From NCBI GenBank assembly GCA_964566535.1, contig CAZMIO010000011.1:1-37935 (forward strand): a DNA stretch of 37,935 nucleotides, read 5' to 3'. Shown here piece by piece: positions 3,953 to 37,935 of the stretch. The stretch comes from an uncultured Methanosarcinales archaeon (GTDB lineage: Archaea; Nanobdellota; Nanobdellia; Woesearchaeales; CAZOXR01). The notes under the pieces were generated by a model. That model was given only the letters and a program-made list of their open reading frames with translations. It was not told the origin of the DNA and ran no database searches. The position numbers were made by a program, and so were the translations under genes. How positions within the stretch are numbered: position 1 is the stretch's first letter; each line of letters starts with the position of its first letter.

Positions 3953-4046
3953 GGGCCTGTAGCTCAGCTTGGATTAGAGCGACTGAATTTAATTCCGCTA
4001 AAGCCTTCTAAGCTGTAGGTCGCGAGTTCGAATCTCGTCAGGCCCA
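3953..4046 (+). tRNA. tRNA-Arg(TCT) with an 18-nt intron at position 28/29 (3984-4001)
   Basis: Acceptor GGGCCTG/CAGGCCC-A, D stem GCTC/GAGC, T arm GCGAG-TTCGAAT-CTCGT. Removing 3984-4001 restores the anticodon arm ACAGC-CTTCTAA-GCTGT. Anticodon at 4007-4009. Confidence 0.93.
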
Positions 4047-23962: not shown

Positions 23963-25009
23963 ATGAATAAAATACCCATAAAAACAATTAATGAGATAAA
24001 ACAAATATATATTGATGATAAGAGTTCAACTCTTACTGATTTAGCAAAAAGATTTTCTATTTCTAGAGAAAGGATTAAAAAAAGATTAGTTAAAGGAGGC
24101 ATTGATATAAGATCAAATCAAGAAATTGCCGATTTTAAGAAAGAAGAGGCAGTTGAAAATCTTTGTAAATTATACAATAAAATAATGTCCTTGAGAAAAG
24201 TTAGAAAATTAACTGGGCATTCAATAAACTTCATAAAAAGATGCATTAAGGGAAAAGTTCAATTTCCCATTTACCCTAGGCCCTTAAAAGAAGAGTTTGA
24301 TAAAGTAACAAAGGAGAAAGTTAGAATTTATGCACACTCTATTTTTGATGGGCACGTCAGTCATAGTAAGGGTAATTCATATATTGTAGGTTATACAAAT
24401 AAATGTCCTGAGTTACTAAGAGAATTCGGTAATGATGTAGAATATGTTTATGGTATAAAAAAGGGCGAATACTTATTAAAATCGGGAGTTACAAATTTAA
24501 TTTATTCTTCAAAATTAATGTATTTAGACATACTAAACTTTAATAAGTCGATAGTGAAAGAGGATCCCGAATATAAAAAAGTATACCTGCGGGCTTTTTT
24601 CGATGATGAAGGTTGTGTTATTTTTAATCCATCTAAAGGTAAATTTTTTATTAATGGGAAACAGCACAATCAAAAAGAAATATTATTTATTAAGTCATTA
24701 TTAGATGATTTTGGAATTGGAAGTAAAGTATATAAATTTGTAATAGAGATAACTCTTAACAAATCCATTATTGAATATAGCAAACTCATTGGATTCACAC
24801 ACCCTGAAAAAAGAAGAAAAATTTTAACTGGTATAGCTTATTATGAAAAAAAGTTTAGGAAGATTAATAATCAAAATCTTAGAATTAAAAAATTTACACT
24901 TAAAGGGATGGGTCCTTACCAGATATCAAAACTAATTGGTATGCCTCCGACCACTATAAGGCATCGAATAGATTCTGGCTTTAAATCAATTAAATATGAT
25001 TATGGTTGA
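23963..25009 (+). CDS. Free-standing LAGLIDADG (DOD) homing-endonuclease-like protein with N- and C-terminal HTH motifs
   Basis: Motif 1 IYAHSIFDGHV, motif 2 YLRAFFDDEGCV and IGFTHPEK; HTH-like LTDLAKRFSISRERI, SLRKVRKLTG and GMGPYQISKLIGMPPTTIRH; strong GAGGTGA SD; visibly more AT-rich than its neighbours. Confidence 0.85.
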   Translation: MNKIPIKTINEIKQIYIDDKSSTLTDLAKRFSISRERIKKRLVKGGIDIRSNQEIADFKKEEAVENLCKLYNKIMSLRKVRKLTGHSINFIKRCIKGKVQFPIYPRPLKEEFDKVTKEKVRIYAHSIFDGHVSHSKGNSYIVGYTNKCPELLREFGNDVEYVYGIKKGEYLLKSGVTNLIYSSKLMYLDILNFNKSIVKEDPEYKKVYLRAFFDDEGCVIFNPSKGKFFINGKQHNQKEILFIKSLLDDFGIGSKVYKFVIEITLNKSIIEYSKLIGFTHPEKRRKILTGIAYYEKKFRKINNQNLRIKKFTLKGMGPYQISKLIGMPPTTIRHRIDSGFKSIKYDYG

Positions 25010-25755
25010 GATTTTTCTGTTTTCTTTTGGGGGTAAACATATCCACGCATCCAATAAACGCCTGCATAAACCGCCGGAGTGTCGACGATAGCGATGACTA
25101 CTTTCAATAACCAGTAAGGTATAATTAATGCGAATAGGTAAGCTACTGTGAACTTTGGTGATGTATTTAGGATTTGAGGTATGAAATCGAAGGGTAAGTA
25201 GAATAATGCGATGAACATGAAGACTACTGTGTCTATAAGTTGAGAGATGATTGTGGATAAGTTGTTTCTTAACCACAAGTATTTTCCTTTTGTTTTTTCT
25301 TTCCAGAAGTTAAATGCCCAAATGTCATGTGTTTGGCTCAGGATGAATGCTGTAACGCTTGCTATGAAGAATCTAATACTCATTCCAAAAACTCTATTGT
25401 ATTGTTCCGCTTGGACATAAGAACGATCTGCAAATGGTAAGGAAACTGCTAGTACTGCCATTAGTAATACGAATACTACACAAATAAAAGCAACCCTCAC
25501 AAATTCCTTAGTTTTTGCCTTTCCATGAACTTCTTCTATGATATCTGTTATGACAAATGTTAAAGGGAATGCAAAGATTCCAACGCTAAATTCTATGAAA
25601 CCTAAGTGAGTTATTTTTGAACCTAATAGATTAGCTGCTATGATTGCTGCTACGAATAAACCTAATAGAAGATTTGTTTTTTTCTCTAATTTTTTATCAT
25701 TGTTAGCATTAAGTTTATTGCCAATTTTATCTTGAGTAGTTTCTTTAGTCCCCAT
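25000..25755 (-). CDS. yhhQ: preQ0/preQ1 (7-deazaguanine) precursor transporter, YhhQ/Vut_1 family
   Basis: AANLLGSK, FPLTFVITDII.EVHG, AS..AF..SQ..D, LWLRNNLST..SQLIDT and VDTP. Confidence 0.92.
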   Translation of the reverse strand: MGTKETTQDKIGNKLNANNDKKLEKKTNLLLGLFVAAIIAANLLGSKITHLGFIEFSVGIFAFPLTFVITDIIEEVHGKAKTKEFVRVAFICVVFVLLMAVLAVSLPFADRSYVQAEQYNRVFGMSIRFFIASVTAFILSQTHDIWAFNFWKEKTKGKYLWLRNNLSTIISQLIDTVVFMFIALFYLPFDFIPQILNTSPKFTVAYLFALIIPYWLLKVVIAIVDTPAVYAGVYWMRGYVYPQKKTEKSQP

Positions 25756-25802: not shown

Positions 25803-27458
25803 TTAAGGGGTTGTTATAGATTTTGTCATAATTATATTCTTTTCTTTGAATTCATTATTGTCTTGGTCAACTGCAGTTACAGCGAAATGGTATTCTGCAC
25901 CACTTTCTAGAGTGTTTACATTAATGTCAATTGTCGTATCCATCGTTGAAATCTGATTTGAGAATTCAAATGAATCTTTTTCGTAGTAGACTTTGTAAGA
26001 AGTGATTGAATCTGTTAAAAGAGTTCCATCAATGTTTGTTGTTGGTTGTGACCACATTAATTCAATTACTTGGTTTCCGTTCTTCGTTTTTATTGTTGGT
26101 GGATCTAAGTTTACTAGGTTTGGTGCAAGAGTGTCAGTTGGAGTTCCTTGGTTGTAGTTCTGAGATTGAGTTAGCTTCTGGTTGTCATCTTCGTTGTTTA
26201 TTTCGTTATCTGCTGCATCTACTGCTGTGATTGCCACATTATATTGTTCATTTGTTGGTAAATGTATGGAGAGGATGAGTTTGCCATTAATTTCGTAGAG
26301 TTCGTTGTCTTTTAGCTCAATCCTGTCAGGAGTATCATCTAGTTGAATTACTGAGTAAAGGAATGTGCATTTGCTTTCTGCTTGATTGTAATCACATTCT
26401 ACTGGAGTTAAATCCATTGTCTTAAATTTATTTTCGTCTTTTATATTTGAAGTTATGTCCAAGGGGATTAGCGTACTTAATTTATGATTTTCAATTTTTG
26501 AGTTTATCAATGATATTTTTGAATAATAGATTGAATAGTATTTTAGGTCTTGATCATTTAGTTTGCCCCACTCCAAAATTAAATGCTTGTCGGATTTTTG
26601 TCTGTCGTAAGCATTTAGGTCTTTAATTGGTCTTGGAGGCAGGTCATCCATGAATAGTGCAAATTTTATTTGGGGTGAGAAAAGTTGAGGGAGGGATGAG
26701 TATTGATTGGCTACATATAGTTGAGTAGTGGGGGTTGCGCAAAACTTAAAAATATTTTTTGTCACTGCACATTTTGGTTTTGAATTTGTGTCTTTTACGA
26801 AAATTAACTCATCATTGTTTTTGTATATGGTCATGGTGTTGTAATCCCATTCCGCGTCAAACCAATTGTTGATTTCTAATCCCAATTTTGCACTGTCGAA
26901 TGTATTGTCGCCATTATATTTTATGAAGTAGTCAATATATTCTCTTTCTGTCAGTTCAGATGGATTATCTCCTGTATAGGATGGGATGTTTTCTAAGTTG
27001 TATGTTAATTGATTTAAGGTCACTGATTGGTCTTTTGAGAGTTTAATCTTGTATTCTTGGTCAAGGTTCTGGTAGTGGGTAAAATCCAAGGTGAAATCGC
27101 AGACACAGTCATTATCTGCTGTTGCTGCGCAGAGTTCATATTGTTCGATGAAATCGTAGAAAAGGTCGTTTATTCCGTTTTTACAGGATCCTTGTGATAA
27201 GGATAGTTCTGGGTGAGTTAGTTCGAATTGCGTTGTTCTGAGATTTATACAATCTGCTATGTTGTCTGATGATAGGCAAGGGAGGAGATTGTTTTTTACT
27301 TCATCAGTTAATGTTTGGTAGTCGCCTATTATGTTGTAGTCAACTGTTGTTGTGAATGAAGGATTTATTGAGTAAGTTCCCACTTTTATTTCGGTAGCCC
27401 CTCTAATAAAAACTATTAAAGTCGTGAAGAGTATTAGGTAGATTATTTTTTTATTCAT
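25803..27458 (-). CDS. Secreted/surface protein with a Cys-containing N-terminal region and two fibronectin type III-like domains
   Basis: Signal MNKKIIYLILFTTLIVFIRG; FN3 patterns LILEW...YYSIYY...YNVAITAVD..DNE and ELMW...YKVYY...LESGAEYHFAVTAVD..NNE. Confidence 0.8.
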   Translation of the reverse strand: MNKKIIYLILFTTLIVFIRGATEIKVGTYSINPSFTTTVDYNIIGDYQTLTDEVKNNLLPCLSSDNIADCINLRTTQFELTHPELSLSQGSCKNGINDLFYDFIEQYELCAATADNDCVCDFTLDFTHYQNLDQEYKIKLSKDQSVTLNQLTYNLENIPSYTGDNPSELTEREYIDYFIKYNGDNTFDSAKLGLEINNWFDAEWDYNTMTIYKNNDELIFVKDTNSKPKCAVTKNIFKFCATPTTQLYVANQYSSLPQLFSPQIKFALFMDDLPPRPIKDLNAYDRQKSDKHLILEWGKLNDQDLKYYSIYYSKISLINSKIENHKLSTLIPLDITSNIKDENKFKTMDLTPVECDYNQAESKCTFLYSVIQLDDTPDRIELKDNELYEINGKLILSIHLPTNEQYNVAITAVDAADNEINNEDDNQKLTQSQNYNQGTPTDTLAPNLVNLDPPTIKTKNGNQVIELMWSQPTTNIDGTLLTDSITSYKVYYEKDSFEFSNQISTMDTTIDINVNTLESGAEYHFAVTAVDQDNNEFKEKNIIMTKSITTP

Positions 27459-27459
27459 T

Positions 27460-28548
27460 TTAAGTATAGCCTTCTTCTCGTGGAGGAATTTTTCCTAGGT
27501 CCGCTAATAGTATATGGCCAGTTAGACTAATCCTTGACCAGTCGAAATTGGGAGATGGGTCCCATTTGCCTATTGCAGCAGTTGTGACTTGGTAGTGGCC
27601 TAAGACATGTTGATTGTCTGCCTTTATTGATGGCCACCTAACTGCAATGTCATTTATCAGGTCTTTTATGGAGTTGTATTGAGCATTTGTATATTGCATG
27701 TCTGCTTTTCCAGTGTTAACAATCTCTATTCCAATTGAACGAGCATTCCATCCTTTTGCATGGTAGGCCATTTTATCTTCAGTTACTGGATTATGGATTG
27801 TTCCGTCACGGTCAACTATGTAATGGACTGATAATCCTCTGTTTCTCAATGCTCTGAAAGTTTGGGCTGCTGATGAGTCCCCTGTATGATGAAGAATAAT
27901 TCTATCAACTACTGCGCTTCTTGGCCTTGATCTTGAATCTAGCCTTCCAACGTAGTTGGATGAGACTGTTGTTGTAGGAGTTGTTACAACTCCTTGTGAA
28001 GGGGCCCTGGTTTGTGACGATATGTCTACATTAGGGATCTCTTTTTTTCTTTCTTTGATATCCAAGGTTAATGGTTGGAGGGCAAATCCATTAACTGTTG
28101 TTTTTTGGTTTTCTTCTGTTATTAGGAAATTGTAGTTTGTTTGTGGAATGTCTGGATAGTTAATTAAGTATAGGTCTAGGTTAGTTATTATTGAATCTGA
28201 TAGTTCTTTGGCAATATCTGGGTAACATTTTTCTCCAGTATGTTCAAAGTCGTCGTTCCAGATAGTATAACCAAAATAATTACCGCAATTGGGAGGTTCT
28301 GCATGTCCACCTTGTTGGCCTAGGTCGAATATTGCTTGTTGTGCCGAGTATTTTGCGGATTGGTCTATTATGAATAAGTTTTTTTCGGCTTCATGGTAAG
28401 TATCTATTATATCTTTAGGGAGCTGGCCTACGTCCCTTGTTAGTTTAGCTGTTTTAGTATGAACAGTTACCACTAAAACTACTAATACAAATATCATCAC
28501 AGCTAGGAATGATATGTCAAAAAACATGTCTGCTTTTTTATTCTTCAT
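27460..28548 (-). CDS. Pilin-like (class III signal) protein fused to a C-terminal N-acetylmuramoyl-L-alanine amidase (Amidase_2/AmpD-like)
   Basis: MKNKKA|DMFFD plus a hydrophobic helix; S/T/P linker; IILHHTG, SVHYIVDRDG, AYHA..WNARSIGIE, VLGH and KWDPSPNFDW. Confidence 0.9.
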   Translation of the reverse strand: MKNKKADMFFDISFLAVMIFVLVVLVVTVHTKTAKLTRDVGQLPKDIIDTYHEAEKNLFIIDQSAKYSAQQAIFDLGQQGGHAEPPNCGNYFGYTIWNDDFEHTGEKCYPDIAKELSDSIITNLDLYLINYPDIPQTNYNFLITEENQKTTVNGFALQPLTLDIKERKKEIPNVDISSQTRAPSQGVVTTPTTTVSSNYVGRLDSRSRPRSAVVDRIILHHTGDSSAAQTFRALRNRGLSVHYIVDRDGTIHNPVTEDKMAYHAKGWNARSIGIEIVNTGKADMQYTNAQYNSIKDLINDIAVRWPSIKADNQHVLGHYQVTTAAIGKWDPSPNFDWSRISLTGHILLADLGKIPPREEGYT

Positions 28549-29005
28549 TTTGGTAAATTTCTATTTGGAATTTGATTGGTTGATTTGGGATTTTTGATGG
28601 AAGTAATATGAGATATGTGTTTGATTTACCACTGCAAACGGAGTCATCGCAGAACTTTGTTACTTCGTTGTCATCTATTGATATTTTCCACCCAGTTTTT
28701 TTGTTGAATGTTGTTTCTAGTGCTGTTGAAGTTGTTGTTGTTAATTGGGTGTAGTCACCATTATGGTATGCCCCAGTTATTATATCTGCCATATTATTAC
28801 CATTTGCACCATAATTAAGATAATAAGTTATGAACAAATTAGACTTTGAATCAACCATCATATTGTTTATCTTAAATTGTATACGTTGTTCTGCCATCGG
28901 GACATAGATGAACATTAGTGATCCCATTATTATGAACGTGCCGATTATTCCAAAGATTACAAAAGAGAGGTAATCTGCGCTTGTTTGGGCTTTTTTTGAT
29001 TTCAT
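28538..29005 (-). CDS. Pilin-like protein (class III signal peptide)
   Basis: MKSKKA|QTSAD plus a hydrophobic helix; overlaps its neighbours in the operon. Confidence 0.8.
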   Translation of the reverse strand: MKSKKAQTSADYLSFVIFGIIGTFIIMGSLMFIYVPMAEQRIQFKINNMMVDSKSNLFITYYLNYGANGNNMADIITGAYHNGDYTQLTTTTSTALETTFNKKTGWKISIDDNEVTKFCDDSVCSGKSNTYLILLPSKIPNQPIKFQIEIYQNEE

Positions 29006-29502
29006 TTTTGGAAATGTGCAGTCACTATGAGTTTTCCTTTTGTATATGTGTCTTCGTCTTTTATTGTAACTAATATTGATTGAGTTATCGAATCGTAATT
29101 TTTATTTATCAGTCTTGGTTCGATTGATTCGTAAAGTTTTTGGTTGTAGAAGATTTCCGTTGGAGGTTGTGATTCTGGCTCTAAGGTAAGTTTGAAACTT
29201 ATTTGGAGTTTTGTTTCGTTGAATAAGTCTTTTAGGACTTGTTCGTTGAATTTATCTATGTCTACGATGTTAGTGTAATGTCTTTTTGTTAATTCATTTG
29301 TGTAGAATACGGAGTTTTTTGAGTAGAAGACGCGGTTGAAGAGAATATGAGATTCAAGATCTCCTGTTGATAGTGATGATTCTAAAGCTGCTCCAACAAT
29401 AAACCTTATTCCTACGTAGAAGGGGATTAGGATGAAGAGGATTGTAATTACCCACATCCATGTGTATACAGTAACTCTTGCTTTTTTGTTTTTAATCATC
29501 AT
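29002..29502 (-). CDS. Pilin-like protein (class III-like signal peptide)
   Basis: KNKKA|RVTVY plus a hydrophobic helix; ATGA coupling to the next gene. Confidence 0.75.
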   Translation of the reverse strand: MMIKNKKARVTVYTWMWVITILFILIPFYVGIRFIVGAALESSLSTGDLESHILFNRVFYSKNSVFYTNELTKRHYTNIVDIDKFNEQVLKDLFNETKLQISFKLTLEPESQPPTEIFYNQKLYESIEPRLINKNYDSITQSILVTIKDEDTYTKGKLIVTAHFQK

Positions 29503-30445
29503 ATTGTTCTATACCTTTGTTTATTGAGGATGAAATTGCAAGCATTGCTTCTTCGTTTTCTAAGAGGTTTTGAGATTCTCCTATCCTTTGGTTGCCAATC
29601 TGTAGGATAACTGCTATGTTATCTTGGTTAAGTGCTCCATATTCAGATGTTGGGATGATAGTTATCCCAGTTATTCCTTTTAGGTTGTTTTCTTGTATTA
29701 GTGTGTTTAGGTCAGTGTTAGTTATTATTTCGTTTAGGATTAAGCAGGCTACACGTTCTGATTCTAGTGATTTTGCCGAAGACGATGAAATGTATGCTAC
29801 TAAGTTATTATTGTTTTCATCAAAATTAGAAGTGAATTTGATTAATGAGATGAATGCGTCTTTTGATGAAGTGATTATATCTGGGGAATCTAGGTGTTCT
29901 TTTGTAACTAATGGCGGGATGTAGAGAGATTTTCCTTGGACGGTTTCTGCGTTTTCTATTTCTGGGCAGACGAAGGTGAATGGGGTTATTTGAGTGTTAA
30001 AGTCAGTTATACTCATCTTGTTGCCAAGTTTTGTAATCTTTATCTGAACTTTTTCTTTTAATTCATCTTCTTCGAAAGTCGGTTCTAAAGTTGTTTCTTG
30101 AAAAGAGATGTTTCTATCGTTTATGATGGGATGGGTTTGCTTGTGGAGTATTGTGTTTGGGTCATAAACTTCAATTTTGGAATTTGTGAAGGTGAAGGTG
30201 AAAGCGTGGGTGTCCTTAGGATAGTTTAGCTCAACATTTCCTGGTGCTGAGTAGATTGTGTCTATTAAGATAGCTAAATCTTTTTTTAGAAAGATTTTTT
30301 CGAACAAAGTGTGGTTTCTAATTTCTTCAAAAAAGCTTAGAAGGCCGAAGAAAATTACTCCAAAAACTATGACTAATGCAAAGGCTGGAATCATAGCCAT
30401 CTCAATAGTTTCACTACCTCTTTTTCCCCGGAACAAACTATACAT
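29492..30445 (-). CDS. Pilin-like protein with a C-terminal, probably degenerate Amidase_3-like domain
   Basis: GKRG|SETIE plus a hydrophobic helix. The C-terminal DAFISL...VAYIS...SERVACLILNEI...GALNQDNIAVILQIGN resembles the Amidase_3 pattern but lacks the catalytic His/Glu (domain call made by eye). Confidence 0.7.
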   Translation of the reverse strand: MYSLFRGKRGSETIEMAMIPAFALVIVFGVIFFGLLSFFEEIRNHTLFEKIFLKKDLAILIDTIYSAPGNVELNYPKDTHAFTFTFTNSKIEVYDPNTILHKQTHPIINDRNISFQETTLEPTFEEDELKEKVQIKITKLGNKMSITDFNTQITPFTFVCPEIENAETVQGKSLYIPPLVTKEHLDSPDIITSSKDAFISLIKFTSNFDENNNNLVAYISSSSAKSLESERVACLILNEIITNTDLNTLIQENNLKGITGITIIPTSEYGALNQDNIAVILQIGNQRIGESQNLLENEEAMLAISSSINKGIEQYDD

Positions 30446-30482
30446 ATGTTAATTTTAGGAAGAAGTATTTAAATAGTTTACC

Positions 30483-30953
30483 TTAAGTGGTTGGATTAGA
30501 AATGGTTATAATTCCATCAGCGTCTTTTTTTATAAATACATTCGTTATTGCTTCTACTGTGAATTCAGCTATTTTAAAATTACCATTTTTTATTTTCTGG
30601 CAGGCAGGTCTTGGTTTAGGTCTTTCCGTATCTATTATACAAAGCTGAGCAGTATTTTGACTGCATTCATCATCTGGCGGTCCTTCGCAGACCTTTAATG
30701 ACTTTAATATATATTTGCCCCCCACCTCTTTGTTCACCGGAAATGGAATTGTTGCTGATTTGTTGTTTTCTAAATTGTTTATCTCAATTGCTAGCCTCAT
30801 CAGTTTGTCTTGAGTTGCTAAATCTGGTTTTTGAGTTATAAAATTCCATGCAACTATTGGGATTTTAGAAGACCATAAAGCTAGAAGGAATATAAAGAAG
30901 ATTGCGAGAGTCATAAGTTCTCGCATTGTCATTTCTACTGCTTTTTTATTCAT
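30483..30953 (-). CDS. Pilin-like protein (class III signal peptide)
   Basis: MNKKA|VEMTMRE plus a hydrophobic helix; four Cys in the globular part. Confidence 0.78.
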   Translation of the reverse strand: MNKKAVEMTMRELMTLAIFFIFLLALWSSKIPIVAWNFITQKPDLATQDKLMRLAIEINNLENNKSATIPFPVNKEVGGKYILKSLKVCEGPPDDECSQNTAQLCIIDTERPKPRPACQKIKNGNFKIAEFTVEAITNVFIKKDADGIITISNPTT

Positions 30954-31260
30954 CTTTTTTTATACGTTCGCAGCAGAGTGTCTCATCTGGACAGTCCCCC
31001 CATCCCCCGCTTGGTGCAGGAATCTCTTCATAGTAGAAATTGTCAGTTTCACCGCAGGTGTCTTGGCAGTTTTTGTTTGACATAAACCCTTTGCAAACTG
31101 TGCCTTCCCTTATGCCTTTAGTAGTATTACTAATACTTGTAAAACCTGCTGCAAAGTCTTTTATTTGAGATCCGAAGATAGCTATTACAACTACCAGTAC
31201 GAACAGAACAATTGCAGCTACTACAACTGTTTCCATAGAGATTGCTGCTCTTTTTTTCAT
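30946..31260 (-). CDS. Small Cys-rich pilin-like protein
   Basis: MKKRA|AISME-TVVVAAIVLFVLVVVIAIF; six Cys ending WGDCPDETLCC. Confidence 0.85.
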   Translation of the reverse strand: MKKRAAISMETVVVAAIVLFVLVVVIAIFGSQIKDFAAGFTSISNTTKGIREGTVCKGFMSNKNCQDTCGETDNFYYEEIPAPSGGWGDCPDETLCCERIKKDE

Positions 31261-31369
31261 AATATTGATTATTAGCTGACGATTATATAAATTTGTCGAT
31301 TAAGTTAAGACAAATGTCAACACGTCATTTTCCAAAACATTTATATAAATATTTGTTTAGGTAAGGAAC

Positions 31370-32014
31370 ATGGAAAAAAAGGTGCTGGCAGGATTTATCA
31401 TCATAGTTCTTGGAGTTATGATAGTATCTACTTATTTCTTTTTGGAATTTTTTGGTGGTGGTGAAGAGGTTGGAGATAGTGATGAGATAATCATAGATAG
31501 AGGAAATGTTAAAGAGGTTAATGTTGAGCAGATAACTAGTGGTAGTGGCCATTTAGATATGTTTGGGCAACAGTTTGACAATGGAAAAATATCCACTGTT
31601 TTTGGATATAGTGGGTTTTATCACGGTGAATTTTTTGAGTATGAGTATAGGGATGAGCAGGATAAGTTAATGATGAGGATTACTAATGAGATGGAACCCT
31701 TCAATGGAGTTATTGAAGGCTTTGCTGTTGCCAATATAGTAGATAATAAACCAATTGTGCAGATATTTTTAGATGAGGACTGGAAAAGGGAGGTTGGTGA
31801 CACATTTATATGGTATGGAGTAGGATATAAAAATTACAAAGAATTCAATTTTAATGAAATCTCTGAAGGAATTTACTCTGACTCAATAGAGGATGACCCT
31901 GGCAGATTTATGGCAGAATTTACATTACATTTAGGTGGAGTAATCATAGGAGACGTTTCTAAAGAAAAGATTAAGAATGAAGATGAAGATATTACTTTAA
32001 TTAAGTTTGAATAA
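31370..32014 (+). CDS. Hypothetical N-terminally anchored acidic protein
   Basis: TATA-like TTTATATAAA ~30 nt upstream; one N-terminal TM; D/E-rich body; the only plus-strand gene in the pilin array. Confidence 0.8.
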   Translation: MEKKVLAGFIIIVLGVMIVSTYFFLEFFGGGEEVGDSDEIIIDRGNVKEVNVEQITSGSGHLDMFGQQFDNGKISTVFGYSGFYHGEFFEYEYRDEQDKLMMRITNEMEPFNGVIEGFAVANIVDNKPIVQIFLDEDWKREVGDTFIWYGVGYKNYKEFNFNEISEGIYSDSIEDDPGRFMAEFTLHLGGVIIGDVSKEKIKNEDEDITLIKFE

Positions 32015-32015
32015 G

Positions 32016-35000
32016 TTAATTTCTTACTGGCCATTTTGCGCCGGCTACGTTCAATAAAACGTCAGTTACTACACTTGTTGCTACAATTCCAGGGAGACCA
32101 ATAATTGCTCCTGCCCCTGTTGAGCTAACTCCTGTGAAAAAAGCATCAGCAACTAGTGATCCTGAGAATATTAAAAACTTTAAAGCTGCCCTTGGAGCAT
32201 TTATTCCACCGCTATAACAATAATTTGCCCCCCTTTCAAGCATATAACCTTGGTCTAGTTCTTCTAATCCGACCAATATGCATGGCCCGGAAGTTGGCCC
32301 TACTTCAGCTGTAAGTTGTGAAGTCGATAATTCAGCGAATATTCCTCCTGGTGTAGTTACGGGCGACTGATAGAGTTTACAATGTTTTACCCCTCGTGAT
32401 AAATCGCTATTAAAAGTTGTTAATTTCCTGTAATTAAATACATAGTCTTTTGATGCATCCCATATAATTGTATCTCCGAATTGTGAAGGGTTCTGAGGGT
32501 CAACGTCCCTTCCAAGAATGTGGTCGAATGGAGGTCTTGTTAATGGCTGTCCAGTATAGTATGCATTATAATTTTGGTTTACTTCATACATATTTGTCAG
32601 CATCTCGCCCAATAGTTTTGCAGTGAGGCCTAACTTATTTTGATTTCGTTCAAATGTAACTGGATTTGTTAATATTGGGCTATTCTCTGGCAATATCACT
32701 GTTGTAGCATCAGTAAATATCCTTGTATTAATAAAGATCATAAGATTATCAAACCCATCATCTGGGTCAGCAATATTAGAACCATCTACAATATCTTGAA
32801 TACTATTAGTACCTGGATTTGAAATTAATCCTCCACTGACTGCTCTGAAATCAAGTACTCTTGGATCATTTTTCATAGCTGTTGTAATTTGCCTTGTTTC
32901 CATATCTGTTAATGAATTATCCCTCATGAATTCTGCTGCTCTTAATACAATTTGATGATATTCTCCTAAGAATTTCGTAAGAAGTTCTGAATTTTCAAAT
33001 AAGTTTGATGCGCAATTATCATGTGTGTCTTGTTCATAACCATTAAGTGGGTTTGAAAGATCAATTTTTGCACTGCATAATCTAGCCATATATTCCCTAT
33101 TAGATTCTCCGAATTCTGGTTGATCCCACCAATAAACTATTTCTGGAACTGTTGTAAACGTTGCAGTACTCTTTTCTAAAGGATGTTGAAGTGTAGTTCC
33201 TCCTTCTTTAGTATAAACATCGCTTTTTGTTTCAATTTCACAACGGCAATTTGTTTTTTCCACTACTAAATTTGCTTTGCATGGACTAACTAAGAATAGC
33301 CTTTTGATATCATCGTGTCCCCCCCTTATAGCAGAAAGAATGTTATTTTCCTTATTCAGGCCAATAAAATAATCAGTCATGTAAGGCTCCAAGTTATATC
33401 CTACTCCCTCTCCTTCCTCCACTAAAGTTGGTGTGCTTACAGTTAATGTATTTAACCCCTTAGGAACATATTTTTCATTCAAACCCTCTCTATATTTTGA
33501 AATCCTATCAACTACAAATAAAGCAAATAGTTTATGGTTATTGGTAAACTTTATTGTTCCTACTGTTGCTCCACCAGCTAATGCTGTTCCAGTTATTGCT
33601 CCTACTGCACCAATTGCAGCTCCTTGGGGCCCGCCGACAAAGAACCCCACTATCCCTCCAACTGTTGCTGATTTAAATGATCCTGAAAGCCCTATTCTTC
33701 TCGCTGTTGATGTAGAGAAAGGAATAAACTTTATTCCTGCTGCTCTTGCTGTTCTTTGTGCCGAATCAAAAACATTAACTCCATCCTGCCACGTTGTTCC
33801 AAACATATTCCTAAGGAAACCATTTGCCATTGTCTTAAGTTCCCCATCTCGTCTAACTGCTTCTAGTATTTTATCGAAGAATTCCTGCTCTAATTCAGCT
33901 ATTGTTGCTCTGTCTAAATTTCCCAGTGTTAGTTTAGTTAGGAAATTACCATTTGAATCAAATAAAGCAGGGGTTAATTGAGTAAATTGTTTCATTGCTG
34001 CCTCTTGAGCAACTTGGCTTTTAGGATATGCTTTTTTTGCAGCTTCCCCCATAATTTCACTTAGTGCGTCTGCATCAACTATGTATTTACCTCCTTCGAA
34101 TCTGAATAAGGTGCTTAATAAATCCCGGTATGCTAATACTGATCTCATATTTTTCTTAGTTAATCTTGTTGCTGCAAATGTTTCATCAGTAGCACTATCA
34201 ATTGTTTTTCTAAATTGTGATGTAAATACATTTTCTCTGGCAATGTCATTTGCTATGTTATCTAATTCTGCGTCTAAGTCTGTAGCAGCTCCCCTTCTAC
34301 TTGCAAGCTCATCAGCTTGAGCTCTTATTTCATTTCTAGTTGCAGTTATAGAATCTGGGAAGTCTTGGTAAATAGTGTCAAGATCGTCAATGTTTCTTAC
34401 ACTTGCATCTGCAATTTGTTCTGGGCCATCAGAAAGACCATATGAGTGATAGTGGTTGTCCATCAATACTCTTCTTTCTGCCATTTCGAAATCTATAGCC
34501 CTCATTGCAGCCGGATCATTAGGATCTACATTACGGTATTTGTTTCTTAAAAATTCCATTTCCTCATCAACTTGATTCCTTATAAAAGGTTCCATATCGT
34601 CTGGATCGTCCGGTAGAATTACCCTTCTTAAGTCATCAGAAACAGATACTCTATTGCCACCAACCACCCTACTACTATGAAATCTTTCCCAGACTTGAGT
34701 ATAGATATCTTCTCGGGTTGTAGTTGAGCCTACCCCTTCTAAGACCTCATCAATCAAACCGAGCCTATGAACTTCATCTAATCCTTTTACACCTAATGTT
34801 CCCTCTATCTGGGAGTCTACCAATGCCTTTCTTATTAAGGATTCTTCATCAAGATTAGCTCTTTTGGATTTACCAAGACTTCTTAGAAATGATCTAACTG
34901 GTCCAGGAGGTAGTTCTTGTTTTAGTTCTTTTTTAAGCTGCTTGCCTACTTTTTTTGCTTCTTTTCTTGCTGCCCTTACTCCAGTACCACGGTTTACACG

Positions 35001-35879
35001 TATTATTTGTTCTTGTGTTTGATCCACGACCTCTCCAATTGTTTTTTTCAAAATTTTTCTTGTGACTACAAATCCCCTAGCTGCTCTGACTGCTCCTGGG
35101 ACTGCAGGTACTACGTTAACTAAACCCCATACTAAATTCCATTTTGTAAGTATCCTGTATGTGTCTGTTGCCCAAGCTGCTTCTTCCCCTGGTGGAAACT
35201 GCTGGTAATGTAAAACATATTTTGGGTCTCCCATACCGCCCGTAATCCAATCCCTCAACCCTGCAAATCCTAATTCGTCCTTTTTTTGGTCTAGGAGGAA
35301 CCCTTTTACCTTACAATTAAATTGAGGTGTATCTTCACAAGTTACACAGGAAGTACCATATACTATGCCATCGCATGATAGGTCTGGCCCTATACATTCA
35401 GAATTATCAACGATAGAGGCGCCCCATCCAAGGTCACCAACACATTCGTCTTCTAAAGTCCATGATGGAGGATTTGCCCCAGTATGGCCACTAGAAAATA
35501 CACAACAAACCGAATTAGCTGGTATGCTTTGGGCTACTTGTTCTTCAGTTATAACTTGGTATTGGGGATCACAATGAGTTCCAGAAAATTCAGGTTTACA
35601 ATCTTCTTCCCACCCCTTACAACCTAGTGCAGTACTCTGAATTGCACAGACTAGTGCATTCATGCTGTCTTCCACTGTTTGTTCTTGTGTAGTTAGATGA
35701 TCCTCGGCAACATAAGGGGTAAATTCCTTTTCTTCAAAGTAATCAAACAAGTTCTTGAAGAAATCATTTGTCTGCGGGAAGAACGGCATGATTATGCCAA
35801 ATACTACAACGACTAATACAAAGGAGAATAGAGCCCACTTTGCTACCATCTCCCAGCTAAGGGCACCTCTTTTTTTCAT
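32016..35879 (-). CDS. Giant (1287 aa) pilin-signal protein with Cys-rich regions, a charged helical core, a glycine zipper and a C-terminal hydrophobic hairpin
   Basis: MKKRG|ALSWE plus TM; Cys-rich N-terminus; VGGIVGFFVGGPQGAAIGAVGAITGTALAGG; C-terminal LKFLIFSGSLVA...GAGAIIGLPGIVATSVV. Confidence 0.85.
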   Translation of the reverse strand: MKKRGALSWEMVAKWALFSFVLVVVVFGIIMPFFPQTNDFFKNLFDYFEEKEFTPYVAEDHLTTQEQTVEDSMNALVCAIQSTALGCKGWEEDCKPEFSGTHCDPQYQVITEEQVAQSIPANSVCCVFSSGHTGANPPSWTLEDECVGDLGWGASIVDNSECIGPDLSCDGIVYGTSCVTCEDTPQFNCKVKGFLLDQKKDELGFAGLRDWITGGMGDPKYVLHYQQFPPGEEAAWATDTYRILTKWNLVWGLVNVVPAVPGAVRAARGFVVTRKILKKTIGEVVDQTQEQIIRVNRGTGVRAARKEAKKVGKQLKKELKQELPPGPVRSFLRSLGKSKRANLDEESLIRKALVDSQIEGTLGVKGLDEVHRLGLIDEVLEGVGSTTTREDIYTQVWERFHSSRVVGGNRVSVSDDLRRVILPDDPDDMEPFIRNQVDEEMEFLRNKYRNVDPNDPAAMRAIDFEMAERRVLMDNHYHSYGLSDGPEQIADASVRNIDDLDTIYQDFPDSITATRNEIRAQADELASRRGAATDLDAELDNIANDIARENVFTSQFRKTIDSATDETFAATRLTKKNMRSVLAYRDLLSTLFRFEGGKYIVDADALSEIMGEAAKKAYPKSQVAQEAAMKQFTQLTPALFDSNGNFLTKLTLGNLDRATIAELEQEFFDKILEAVRRDGELKTMANGFLRNMFGTTWQDGVNVFDSAQRTARAAGIKFIPFSTSTARRIGLSGSFKSATVGGIVGFFVGGPQGAAIGAVGAITGTALAGGATVGTIKFTNNHKLFALFVVDRISKYREGLNEKYVPKGLNTLTVSTPTLVEEGEGVGYNLEPYMTDYFIGLNKENNILSAIRGGHDDIKRLFLVSPCKANLVVEKTNCRCEIETKSDVYTKEGGTTLQHPLEKSTATFTTVPEIVYWWDQPEFGESNREYMARLCSAKIDLSNPLNGYEQDTHDNCASNLFENSELLTKFLGEYHQIVLRAAEFMRDNSLTDMETRQITTAMKNDPRVLDFRAVSGGLISNPGTNSIQDIVDGSNIADPDDGFDNLMIFINTRIFTDATTVILPENSPILTNPVTFERNQNKLGLTAKLLGEMLTNMYEVNQNYNAYYTGQPLTRPPFDHILGRDVDPQNPSQFGDTIIWDASKDYVFNYRKLTTFNSDLSRGVKHCKLYQSPVTTPGGIFAELSTSQLTAEVGPTSGPCILVGLEELDQGYMLERGANYCYSGGINAPRAALKFLIFSGSLVADAFFTGVSSTGAGAIIGLPGIVATSVVTDVLLNVAGAKWPVRN

Positions 35880-35884
35880 TTTAT

Positions 35885-36028
35885 TTAGAAGAACATATCT
35901 TTTATATTTCTTAATATGTCGTTGCTTCCTTTATCTGCCTGCATTACCATAAATACTAGTACTGTCAGGATTATTAGACCTAGGAGTAATAATACAAGTG
36001 TTCTTGCTGCTAATGCTTTTTTTTTCAT
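35885..36028 (-). CDS. Micro-pilin, 47 aa (not in the ORF track): MKKKALAARTLVLLLLGLIILTVLVFMVMQADKGSNDILRNIKDMFF
   Basis: Translated by hand. KKKA|L class III-like signal, TM and amphipathic tail; it fills the gap between two co-oriented genes. Confidence 0.8.
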   Translation of the reverse strand: MKKKALAARTLVLLLLGLIILTVLVFMVMQADKGSNDILRNIKDMFF

Positions 36029-36030
36029 TT

Positions 36031-36996
36031 TTAGTTCATAATTGCGTCGCATTTATCTACAACCTCAGCATAGGGCCATATGAAAACAGAATCTATTGCC
36101 TGTAGATGGTCTTCTTCTTCTATGAAGTCTGCTATATCACTTGCTATTTCAACAAGCCTATGAATATTGATCCTCATGAATACTACTGCGCTGTCATCTC
36201 CAGGTTTATAATATAGCCTGTCTTTGTCTTCTTCTTCAGCAAAAAAATCGCTAATAATCGATTCGTCCAGTGTGAATTCATAATAACTTGTAGGGTCATA
36301 AGAGCTTAAAGGATGGCTTTTCATCCAATCAGGCAATGTAGTTATTTCAAGTTCAGGGTCAACGTCTGCTCCGAATTCAGCCTTTACAGAATCATCAAAT
36401 CTTACTCTTGAACAGATGATGCATGCCTTTTTTGTTAAACTTACATCTTTATTAAATGGGTATACTTTTTTAAAGAATCTTTCTAATTTACCATCATCTG
36501 ACTTTAATGTTCCTTCTTCATATTCTACAATGCTAAACCAATCTGAGAATAAATCTAAGTCTCCCCTACCTAACTTATTCCAGCAGTGTTTTATCTCTTT
36601 TGCCATGATTTCGTTCATGCGGTATTCCATGTAGTCCTTATCTTCCTTTTCTTCATAAGCGGGGTACCAATTAGCTAGTTTTTTTCTTAGTGAAGAAGGA
36701 ATTTTCTTGTTTATGTAAAGAAATTCTTCATCCGGAAAGTTACTTTTTCTATCTTTACCTGCTTCTGATTGTGTTATAGTTACAAATCTTTGCGGGCAGA
36801 CTATCTTTATCGTTTCTGCTCCACTTACTTTCCCCATTGATGCAAAAACAGCTGACCAAGCACAAACGCCCCCTTCTGCTACTGCTTTTGCGAATGATAT
36901 GATGTGAAGGTCTAGTTTTGCTAACACTACAAAAGATAGCAGCATGACTGTTATTATTACTAATATTGCTGCTGTTAACCCTTTTTTTCCTTTCAT
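36031..36996 (-). CDS. Pilin-like protein, 321 aa (start corrected from 37092)
   Basis: MKGKKG|LTAAILVII plus TM; Cys motifs EIKHCWNKLGRG and CIICSRVRF. The ATG overlaps the TGA of the upstream micro-pilin. Confidence 0.82.
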   Translation of the reverse strand: MKGKKGLTAAILVIITVMLLSFVVLAKLDLHIISFAKAVAEGGVCAWSAVFASMGKVSGAETIKIVCPQRFVTITQSEAGKDRKSNFPDEEFLYINKKIPSSLRKKLANWYPAYEEKEDKDYMEYRMNEIMAKEIKHCWNKLGRGDLDLFSDWFSIVEYEEGTLKSDDGKLERFFKKVYPFNKDVSLTKKACIICSRVRFDDSVKAEFGADVDPELEITTLPDWMKSHPLSSYDPTSYYEFTLDESIISDFFAEEEDKDRLYYKPGDDSAVVFMRINIHRLVEIASDIADFIEEEDHLQAIDSVFIWPYAEVVDKCDAIMN

Positions 36997-37133
36997 ATTG
37001 TTAAGATGGGGCCTAAAGTGTTCATTATAATCCATATAATTGCTGCTACAACTGCGATGATAATTGCCATGACTATTGGGACTTCTAACCACTTCCCTAG
37101 ACTTATAACTCCTCGTTTCGCTAATGAATTCAT
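36993..37133 (-). CDS. Micro-pilin, 46 aa (not in the ORF track): MNSLAKRGVISLGKWLEVPIVMAIIIAVVAAIIWIIMNTLGPILTI
   Basis: Translated by hand. KRG|VISL signal plus TM; TATA-like TTTATATA ~30 nt upstream; ATGA coupling to the next gene. Confidence 0.8.
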   Translation of the reverse strand: MNSLAKRGVISLGKWLEVPIVMAIIIAVVAAIIWIIMNTLGPILTI

Positions 37134-37201
37134 TTATATGAATTATAGAAGAAGTGATATATAAATGTTAAGTTATTTTGGTTGAAAAAGGATAAAGGTT
37201 T

Positions 37202-37486
37202 TTATCTTATGGCTCTGATACAACAGTAGTCTGCGTTAGCATCCTTCTCCTCTTGTGTTGTTGGACAGTCAGTTCCAGGGATTATGGTCATATCTTTATT
37301 ATCAGTGCAGTCTGTTTTAGCGTTTGCTACACAAGTTCCACCTTTGGATACACAATCTTCAATTCCACCAACGAATCCGCCTAGCCTTCCTATGAAGATT
37401 GCCACCATCATTACAAGAACTATTAATGCAACTGCTGAGACTATAATTGTATTTATAGAAATTCCTTGAGCTTTTTTTGAAAACAT
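37202..37486 (-). CDS. Small Cys-rich pilin (paralog 2)
   Basis: MFSKKA|QGISINTIIVSAVALIVLV; C..KGG.C......DC...PGTDCP...CC. Confidence 0.88.
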   Translation of the reverse strand: MFSKKAQGISINTIIVSAVALIVLVMMVAIFIGRLGGFVGGIEDCVSKGGTCVANAKTDCTDNKDMTIIPGTDCPTTQEEKDANADYCCIRAIR

Positions 37487-37504
37487 AAAAAGAAAATAAA
37501 AATT

Positions 37505-37783
37505 TTAATTTGTGACACTGATGCAACAATGTTTTGCTTTTGCCGTTTTCTCCGCATCTGTGACTGGACAGTCAGTTCCAGGGACCACTGCCATACCCTT
37601 GGAAGTACAATCAGCTTTAGCGTCTGCTACACAATCTCCCCCCTTTGATGCACAATCTTCAATCCCACCAACAAACCCGCCTAGTCTTCCGGTAAAGATT
37701 GCCACTAGAACAACTAAAACTATTAGTGCAATAGCAGCTATTATAATCGTATTTATAGAAATTCCTTGAGCTTTTTTCTTCAT
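37505..37783 (-). CDS. Small Cys-rich pilin (paralog 1)
   Basis: MKKKA|QGISINTIIIAAIALIVLVVLV with the same Cys pattern as paralog 2. The start ATG at 37783 follows a GAGGTG SD. Confidence 0.88.
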   Translation of the reverse strand: MKKKAQGISINTIIIAAIALIVLVVLVAIFTGRLGGFVGGIEDCASKGGDCVADAKADCTSKGMAVVPGTDCPVTDAEKTAKAKHCCISVTN

Positions 37784-37851
37784 TATAGACACCTCTTGGT
37801 ATATTATAATAGTACTCTCCTTTATGTTATATTTAAATGTTTCTATAACTG

Positions 37852-37935
37852 CTAATCCTTACAAATATCTAGCTTGATTTCAATTGTTGTTCCTGTGGAT
37901 GAAGGTAGTGTGAATGGTGATGATGCTTTTGAGCC
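37852..37935 (-). CDS. 3' end of a gene truncated by the window edge (...GSKASSPFTLPSSTGTTIEIKLDICKD*), probably another array member
   Basis: The frame is open from the window end to the TAG at 37852-37854 and is co-oriented with the array. Confidence 0.55.
   Translation of the reverse strand, partial: GSKASSPFTLPSSTGTTIEIKLDICKD

Follow-up and report, generated by a model that had tools for sequence, protein, structure and literature searches.

We analysed a stretch of 37,935 nucleotides, hereafter the window, which is the whole of contig CAZMIO010000011.1 (C11) in assembly GCA_964566535.1 of an uncultured archaeon. The assembly amounts to 1.45 Mb in 37 contigs and is 91% complete. The subject of this report is an array of genes on the reverse strand of the window, where the ORF list places 13 co-oriented open reading frames (ORFs) between positions 25803 and 37792. 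By eye, 12 of the 13 begin with [KR][KR][GA] followed by 15 to 30 hydrophobic residues, and we assigned these N-termini to the class III (prepilin-type) signals on the basis of this motif. The 12 proteins measure 95, 94, 46, 353, 55, 1287, 104, 156, 317, 166, 155 and 362 amino acids (aa). The 353-aa ORF most likely begins at Met33 (321 aa), because that ATG overlaps the stop codon of the 46-aa gene (ATGA). The thirteenth ORF (551 aa) presents an ordinary Sec-type signal ending in R-G-A and an fn3 domain (E 3.1e-8). Neighboring genes overlap by 4 to 22 nt at six of the 12 junctions and the remaining gaps are of 68 nt at most, save one of 755 nt that contains a conserved 214-aa gene on the forward strand. 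These observations bear out an earlier interpretation made from the letters of this DNA (the sequence-only reading), which had described at least 12 co-oriented and often translationally coupled class III genes, encoding proteins of 46 to 1287 aa, in an array that ends in an FN3 surface protein.

When all ORFs of at least 40 aa across the 1.45 Mb were screened with a strict regular expression, 112 class III-like N-termini were identified genome-wide. Ten of these lie inside the 12.1-kb array (0.84% of the genome), where 0.94 would be expected (Poisson P 6e-8). The 46-aa and 1287-aa genes were missed by the strict expression because of its offset limit. The core genes of the array are present in one copy each in the genome.

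The last class III gene of the array encodes p362 (proteins are named here by their length), in which the sequence-only reading had recognized a peptidoglycan amidase. Indeed, residues 213-333 match the Pfam family Amidase_2 with an E-value of 2.1e-27 and 96.5 bits against a cut-off of 26, covering positions 4-131 of the 131 positions of the profile. Alignments to AmpD (1j3g) and AmpDh2 (4bj4) show that the domain keeps a His (H-H-T), a second His (G-H-Y), an Asp (K-W-D-P), a Glu (G-I-E) and a Lys, which we take to be the zinc ligands and catalytic residues. The AlphaFold model of the domain is confident, and Foldseek matched it to AmpD 2y28 with E 4.2e-7 and a probability of 1.0. This search returned 38 matches at E ≤ 0.001 and, among those shown, are AmpD, AmpDh2/3, phage endolysins and PGRPs. 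Judged by sequence and model, the domain looks like an intact and active zinc N-acetylmuramoyl-L-alanine amidase. The whole protein has the layout of modular type IV pilins: a module at residues 1-170 (the N-module, a putative pilin moiety), a disordered linker at 168-211 that is rich in Thr, Ser and Pro (predicted local distance difference test, pLDDT, under 50), and the amidase at 212-345. We refer to p362 and its counterparts in other genomes as candidate cap proteins.

We searched p362 as a single protein against 201 genomes of the same order, a tally that includes the unpublished genomes G121 and G182. A match was found in 134 of them, mostly over residues 2-165 only and in ORFs of 97 to 1433 aa. 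In an alignment of 19 N-modules (A1), the basic pair followed by G, A or S ([KR][KR][GAS]) is present in all 19 rows, and the motifs I-G-x-x-Q, A-E-K and Y-I-D, two Cys and one Trp are also conserved. The profile built from this alignment was compared with 1.84 billion representative proteins and yielded 2089 matches at E ≤ 0.001 and 1414 at E ≤ 1e-10. The best 150 of these start within the first 41 residues, except one that starts at residue 60, and the proteins range from 131 to 1332 aa in length. The profile was needed to reveal this family, since a word-index search with the N-module returned only two proteins. The [KR][KR][GAS] motif occurs in 137 of 149 representatives of the family. The class III N-termini proposed in the sequence-only reading thus not only fit the motif in the array but keep it in relatives. 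In a phylum-wide sample, the profile was found in 161 of 201 genomes, usually once per genome, and other orders of the class also possess the N-module, mostly in short ORFs. The predicted structure of the N-module (pLDDT 86.5) consists of a transmembrane helix, two further helices, the first of them long, and a beta-hairpin.

The cargo carried by these proteins was determined with a Pfam scan of the 149 best profile matches, p362 itself being excluded (118 + 31 proteins). One or more murein hydrolase domains were found in 59 of the 149 representatives, usually starting near residue 190-250, which is the same layout as in p362. These domains belong to six families: Peptidase_M23 (20 representatives), M15/VanY (17), SLT (14), Amidase_2 (7), Glucosaminidase (3) and NlpC/P60 (2), with three representatives carrying two or three of them. 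A cap protein of 1249 aa in genome G156 (L041, 9580-13329, forward strand), which is probably the representative P0042, presents Amidase_2, Peptidase_M23 and SLT in a row, and SLT-bearing N-module proteins reach 1095 aa. Only fn3 was found in three representatives and no Pfam family in 87. Hydrolases were identified in 58 of the 104 representatives of at least 300 aa versus one of the 45 shorter ones. Across the order, Amidase_2 was found in 28 of the 201 genomes (31 matches). Some of these genes sit away from the cap gene, as in G027 and G126; Amidase_2 and the N-module share one ORF in nine genomes belonging to seven GTDB families. The sequence-only reading had left room for the amidase to be a one-off insertion, and this possibility is refuted by the nine genomes and by the recurrence of hydrolases across the family.

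We compared up to 20 kb around 20 of the p362 matches with all array proteins and read the resulting gene maps by eye. Gene order, which the sequence-only reading had marked as informative, is conserved throughout the order: in 17 of the 18 loci with an N-terminal match, the N-module gene ends a run of class III-type genes or precedes only a p551-like gene. The shared order runs from small pilins to larger accessory proteins, homologues of p317 and p166, a positional homologue of p155 and finally the N-module gene; homologues of p95 hold the same operon position in the loci of 14 relatives. The p551-like region is fused to the N-module in G076 and G172 (loci L027 and L028; 856 and 857 aa, respectively), and G174 encodes a single protein of 1338 aa (L042) composed of N-module, Amidase_2 and p551-like region. 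Because relatives possess these fused forms, the p362 and p551 genes look like the split form of one cap protein. Several relatives present four or five extra class III genes upstream of the small pilins. Homologues of those upstream genes were found in the genome under study at the 3' end of contig C17, namely a 947-aa TSP3/Big protein, a 183-aa protein and a 139-aa protein that is cut by the contig end. Judging from these homologues, the operon is larger than the array, which represents its distal portion, and extends onto contig C17. The ORF fragment of 27 residues at the end of the window gave no informative match to the upstream genes of relatives. The features of the array are listed in Table 1.

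Table 1. Features of the class III gene array and its upstream border in the window, in order of descending position.
Feature	Position	Strand	Remark
Upstream ORF, 3' end (27 codons + stop), cut by contig end	37852..37935	-	open frame, translated
TATA-like box TTTAAATATA, ~45 nt upstream of the ATG of the first small pilin gene	37828..37837	-	read directly; putative promoter
p95: small Cys-rich pilin-like protein (6 Cys), candidate major subunit; likely start ATG 37783	37505..37792	-	
p94: tandem paralogue, 71% identical to p95	37202..37486	-	
p46: class III-like mini-protein of 46 aa; stop overlaps next start by 4 nt	36993..37133	-	
p353 (321 aa from Met33; K-K-G then helix): pilin-like, no known family	36031..36996	-	homologues in L043, L042, L032
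p55: class III-like mini-protein of 55 aa	35885..36052	-	
p1287: giant pilin-like protein, class III-like N-terminus, Glu at +5	32016..35879	-	
p214: conserved signal-anchored protein, antisense inside the operon	31370..32014	+	
p104: small Cys-rich pilin-like protein, Glu at +5	30946..31260	-	
p156: pilin-like; 8-nt overlap with p104	30483..30953	-	
p317: core pilin-like; C-terminal half a remote, probably dead Amidase_3-like domain	29492..30445	-	
p166: core pilin-like; 11-nt overlap with p317	29002..29502	-	homologues at same position in 14 loci
p155: core pilin-like, directly upstream of cap gene, overlaps on both sides	28538..29005	-	positional homologues align, 15 loci (A4)
p362: candidate cap or cargo protein; N-module 1-170 (two conserved Cys), linker 168-211, Amidase_2 213-333	27460..28548	-	domain at window 27550-27912
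p551: Sec-signal FN3 surface protein	25803..27458	-	homologous to C-terminal part of relatives' cap protein

The antisense gene p214 has homologues at the same place in relatives (E 6e-42 to 9e-34), on the opposite strand in two distant relatives (L043 and L039) and on the same strand in L025. A complex prediction for the globular parts of p155 and the N-module, based on 15-row alignments, scored 0.14 against a mark of 0.32. On contig C17, a protein of 4556 aa with an N-terminal anchor is encoded directly upstream of the 947-aa protein (C17:1497-15167, forward strand), the latter being the first member of the C17 portion of the operon.

A degenerate amidase-like domain was another claim of the sequence-only reading, and it corresponds to the C-terminal half of p317. 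The family profile and two of the nine family members resemble Amidase_3, whereas p317's own sequence matches no Pfam family, its C-terminal half giving none even at E 10. The best PDB matches of the nine-member profile are Amidase_3 enzymes (autolysin 5emi, E 0.008, and 3ne8, E 0.31), and the two members match Pfam Amidase_3 weakly (best E 6.5e-4, below the cut-off). The column that faces the His of S-I-H-A-N in 5emi contains no His in the consensus nor in any of the nine rows of alignment A3, and the Glu column of the Amidase_3 alignment contains Gln in p317 of the window. In Amidase_3 enzymes these residues are the zinc-binding His and the catalytic Glu. Because the first column lacks His and Glu is replaced by Gln, we read the domain as dead with a fold resembling that of Amidase_3, and it may be a murein-binding module. 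The atlas relatives of p317 are exclusively archaeal and labeled Nanobdellota or Woesearchaeota.

The largest protein of the array, p1287, presents a Cys-rich region at residues 78-189 as well as the membrane-inserting type of segment that had been noticed in the sequence-only reading: residues 741-757 form a glycine-zipper-like stretch (G-x3-G-x3-G), and the C-terminal segment 1256-1278 is hydrophobic. Homologous proteins about 1000 aa long were identified in 19 of the 201 genomes, and their genes often lie close to that of the N-module. Two stretches are conserved, residues 161-312 and 738-915, and the second of these includes the glycine-zipper-like segment. Searches with p1287 yielded no Pfam family even at E 10, no atlas match and, for residues 150-920, no word-index homologue. 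A relationship to a type III translocon was rejected, as the match to the NCBIfam model (E 0.078, 11.7 bits against 540) is noise.

Genes for an ATPase, a platform protein or a peptidase were not found among the domain matches of the window, in agreement with the sequence-only reading, which had expected them elsewhere in the genome. The genome contains one Peptidase_A24 (contig C1, 287 aa), which matches PF01478 over the full profile (E 1.8e-13) with both Asp motifs visible. It also contains one FlaI/TadA-like ATPase of 763 aa (contig C7). This protein scores 49.6 bits with PF00437 (cut-off 24.9) and, in NCBIfam, comes closest to FlaI (E 3e-37) and TadA (E 8e-35), without reaching the equivalog cut-off of either. 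The gene right after the ATPase encodes a platform-like protein of 721 aa with eight hydrophobic segments, and a 282-aa paralogue of the operon's 183-aa protein sits two genes upstream of the ATPase. A second T2SSE match was ruled out as the pilus motor, as it corresponds to a 608-aa PIN-ATPase-KH fusion (C2:130079-131905; L048 4079-5905). An ATPase of the Sulfolobus BasE type was likewise rejected, since the BasE model of NCBIfam scored 63.1 bits, far short of its cut-off of 1000 and behind FlaI and TadA. The five relatives that we checked, three of which are assembled in one to four contigs, all encode an ATPase of 762-789 aa, and it never adjoins the pilin operon. We connect motor and operon because the genome possesses only one such motor.

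Our results lead us to favor, with confidence a little above even, the interpretation that the array encodes a surface apparatus resembling a type IV filament, with a cap that bears a murein hydrolase directed against bacteria. As part of this whole interpretation, and with the same slight preference, the array would be the distal 12 kb of the one operon for type IV filament subunits in a marine DPANN archaeon of the Woesearchaeota type. The two tandem Cys-rich pilin-like proteins of about 95 aa would be the likely bulk subunits, and about ten further pilin-like proteins would be accessory subunits. An initiation or tip complex is probably encoded by the last four class III genes (317, 166, 155 and 362 aa), which are translationally coupled and conserved in relatives. 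In this complex, the final member p362 would be the cap, combining the conserved 170-residue N-module with a flexible linker and swappable cargo, and the dead Amidase_3-like domain of p317 may bind murein. The FN3 protein p551 would be the detached distal part of what is a single polypeptide in relatives. The subunits would be processed by the one A24 peptidase of the genome and assembled by its one FlaI/TadA-like ATPase and the platform protein, all encoded elsewhere. Finally, the hydrolase would be presented to bacterial peptidoglycan on contact, leading to attachment to the bacterial wall and its local opening. This interpretation thus supposes that the signals are cleaved, that the filament polymerizes, that the amidase sits at the tip and that the target is a living bacterium rather than wall debris; the 1287-aa protein may contact or permeabilize the membrane.

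The sequence-only reading had likewise united major pilins, minor pilins and tip cargo in one machine. This proposal stands in part: the N-termini fit the class III motif, assembly genes of the type IV kind are present in the genome and the amidase is linked to the array in relatives. On the other hand, the head of the N-module has no pilin-like fold match and the array is incomplete in the window. A more daring version of the favored interpretation likens the apparatus to a drill: a filament with a four-protein tip, made of the murein-binding dead amidase and an interchangeable hydrolase cap among others, would be completed by p1287 inserting in the bacterial membrane and opening a feeding conduit. 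We give this version only a small chance. If it were true, Woesearchaeota-type DPANN would be contact-dependent parasites or predators of bacteria, with an enzyme fitted in each lineage to the chemistry of the host wall.

Several findings weigh against the favored interpretation. No subunit of the array matches any pilin family in Pfam or NCBIfam. When the head of the N-module was compared with the PDB, the best Foldseek match had an E-value of 0.97 and no pilin was among the matches; the best VIA-align wide match had a Z of 6.7 (dynein light chain), which is within noise, and again no pilin was found. The T2SSF match of the 721-aa platform-like protein is below the Pfam cut-off (21.4 against 25.2 bits, E 2.6e-4), and the genes of ATPase and platform lie apart from the operon both in the genome under study and in all five relatives. 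The missing pilin families, the unrecognizable head fold and the unlinked motor would also be expected if there were no filament at all, the signals being uncleaved anchors of a membrane-tethered surface complex unrelated to type IV machinery. We nevertheless consider such a complex distinctly improbable. A plain signal anchor would not need the small residue (G, A or S) that follows the basic pair in all 19 N-modules and in 137 of the 149 representatives, and the reduced 1.45-Mb genome retains a prepilin peptidase, an ATPase and a platform, next to which a paralogue of one of the operon proteins is encoded. A different difficulty is that 90 of the 149 representatives lack a recognized hydrolase. 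Together with the short forms found in other orders, this suggests that the operon may have a core role unrelated to murein. N-x-S/T sequons are also scarce in the array proteins, with five seen versus 30.6 expected from composition (P 1.4e-8) and none at all in the 1287-, 551- and 362-aa proteins or the 353-aa ORF. This scarcity counts on the same side because archaeal pilins are usually glycosylated.

Sequon content was also examined outside the array. The operons of relatives present a milder depletion (138 sequons versus 250 expected). The large N-terminally anchored proteins of the genome, drawn from contigs C2, C6, C17, C18 and C23, split into a sequon-poor group (0 versus 39 and 4 versus 43.7 expected) and a sequon-rich group (123 versus 46 and 118 versus 43 expected). 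The 4556-aa anchored protein of contig C17 is the one with four sequons against 43.7 expected.

A further difficulty lies in the cargo itself. AmpD, the closest solved relative of the amidase, is a cytoplasmic muropeptide-recycling enzyme and therefore fits scavenging as well as wall attack. The main rival to the favored interpretation is indeed a display or secretion device for scavenging, such as a short pseudopilus or a bindosome-like assembly, whose hydrolases would digest wall debris and muropeptides of dead bacteria to supply the archaeon with amino acids and amino sugars, with no attachment to a living partner. The M15/VanY carboxypeptidase-type cargo of 17 of the 149 representatives, which releases terminal residues, would suit such a device, whereas the SLT and M23 cargoes (34 of 149) act on the intact polymer. 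The Sulfolobus bindosome (Bas) offers a precedent, in that non-pilin, substrate-binding proteins carry class III signals and are cut by prepilin peptidase, but the bindosome model BasE reaches only 63 bits against its cut-off of 1000 in our genome. The available text of a paper on Pacearchaeota proposes that amino acids are gained from the peptidoglycan of dead bacteria (PMC11537232). However, in the present operon the hydrolase is joined to a conserved structural module in the final position instead of being freely secreted. Finally, the two small pilin-like proteins are strongly conserved and have a TATA-like putative promoter of their own, which suggests a polymer. On balance, we regard scavenging as unlikely, yet as the strongest of the alternatives.

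The last point against the favored interpretation is the presence of one Mur_ligase_M match in the genome. Bacteria are known to pair dedicated hydrolases with envelope-spanning machines such as secretion and pilus systems, and the match could indicate that the archaeon has a murein-like wall of its own, which the hydrolases remodel to let the apparatus pass. We judge this very improbable. The Mur_ligase_M model is not specific to wall synthesis, since it also matches the archaeal controls Methanocaldococcus and Haloferax, and no PBP transpeptidase, SEDS or SLT gene was found in the 91%-complete genome, although murein ligases are not excluded. It is established that archaeal walls are devoid of N-acetylmuramic acid (MurNAc) and D-amino-acid bonds, and the cargo families target precisely these foreign bonds.

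The least probable of the explanations that we considered, with hardly any weight in our view, is an integrated virus or mobile element whose amidase serves as an endolysin. Amidase_2 is common in phage endolysins, several of which are among the fold matches, and a LAGLIDADG gene lies 800 bp downstream. Yet the operon occurs in one copy, retains its synteny throughout the order and has a flank that is conserved in relatives, and the GC content of the array resembles that of the rest of the contig (31-39% along the whole window). Moreover, no capsid, terminase or integrase family was seen among the domain matches of the window.

The end of the operon is bordered in the window by the LAGLIDADG gene, which also encodes a helix-turn-helix domain (23963-25009, forward strand), and by a Vut_1 transporter gene (25000-25755, reverse strand). 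Relatives mostly possess a conserved gene of about 335 aa straight after the cap gene. Because most relatives show that gene there instead, the operon flank appears to have been rearranged in the window. The other genes of the window include archaeal housekeeping genes: topoisomerase VI A and B, ribosomal proteins including L18e, prefoldin, RNA polymerase subunit D with an Fe-S insert, RLI/ABCE1, FtsY and a GAN/Cdc45-like DHH protein. At positions 3953-4046 (forward strand), ARAGORN reports a 96-nt 'tRNA-Stop, anticodon tta', and the Rfam tRNA model fits the same stretch with 46 bits and an insert of 27 nt in the anticodon region. This insert suggests that the prediction is probably a misread intron-bearing tRNA and not a suppressor. 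TAA is the stop codon of most array genes. Nearly identical DNA occurs in seawater or marine metagenomes from 14 studies, two of which include possible source runs. For positions 27460-31260, all or part of the stretch occurs in 20 DNA datasets (marine or seawater metagenomes) and no RNA dataset was listed for it.

Few uncultured archaea are as abundant as the Woesearchaeota and Pacearchaeota. Their lifestyle with respect to bacteria is a question already raised in print (PMC8204110, PMC9723730), and a near-universal, defined operon makes the question of their bacterial partners experimentally testable. The lineage-specific cap enzyme could predict the wall type of the partner. In addition, the soluble domains (the amidase and the dead amidase-like domain) could be expressed for tests on sacculi, and the locus offers epitopes for imaging. 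The available texts of three papers describe lytic transglycosylases in Woesearchaeota or Pacearchaeota and propose bacterial hosts or predation (PMC8204110, PMC9723730, PMC11537232). Large extracellular lytic-transglycosylase proteins of family fam00969 were described in both groups (Castelle et al. 2021, PMC8204110), and 'vampiristic' Woesearchaeota have been reported (Vigneron et al. 2022, PMC9723730). As far as their accessible text goes, these two studies share with ours the archaeal groups and the idea that bacterial walls are bound or degraded and that the hosts are bacteria. They describe one enzyme class, whereas here six families occupy one position of a conserved pilin-like operon (fam00969 was compared by its description). 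Archaeal murein hydrolases have also been shown experimentally to kill bacteria, as reported for the secreted Woldo and Danwoldo of Halogranum salarium (PLoS Biol 2025, PMC12352652). According to the portion of that paper at hand, those enzymes are diffusible, with Sec or Tat signals and murein-binding domains, and its survey of hydrolases covers Sec and Tat signals only; in our case the enzyme would be tethered to a pilin-like module. The word 'pili' is absent from the available text of PMC8204110, PMC9723730, PMC11537232 and PMC12352652, and 'pilin' from that of PMC8204110 and PMC12352652. We found no printed account of murein hydrolases as cargo of a pilin-like operon in archaea, although supplementary tables might list the same genes.

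The apparatus can also be compared with known surface assemblies. The cargo of the Sulfolobus bindosome binds solutes, whereas the cargo described here cuts murein and the operon has small pilin-like subunits in addition. In Saccharibacteria (CPR), type IV pili serve episymbiosis on bacteria, according to the abstracts of two studies (PMC9894109, PMC11623550). These are likewise ultrasmall cells with reduced genomes that engage a bacterial host by type IV filaments. Their systems are bacterial and their abstracts mention no hydrolase-bearing pilin, and the archaeal operon is not homologous to them in sequence as far as tested. The closest parallel is found in Streptococcus sanguinis, whose PilA/PilB/PilC and HIJK pilins (K being a bulky cap) are described in the available text of PMC9934059 as combining a class III signal, a short pilin-like part, a flexible linker and a grafted module. 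As in our operon, several minor subunits are encoded together, and in the modular-pilin systems described there a bulky subunit can sit only at the tip (PMC9934059). Several differences should be noted: the host is here an archaeon without murein, its N-module has no detectable fold similarity to solved pilins and the tip position of its cap is putative. The modules of S. sanguinis are moreover adhesive (vWA, lectin), according to the same partial source, whereas the archaeal cargo is enzymatic and swappable among six murein-hydrolase families. Our finding extends two known kinds, the modular pilins and the archaeal murein hydrolases, and it would carry the idea of the modular pilin beyond adhesion and beyond bacteria, to an enzymatic cargo in archaea.

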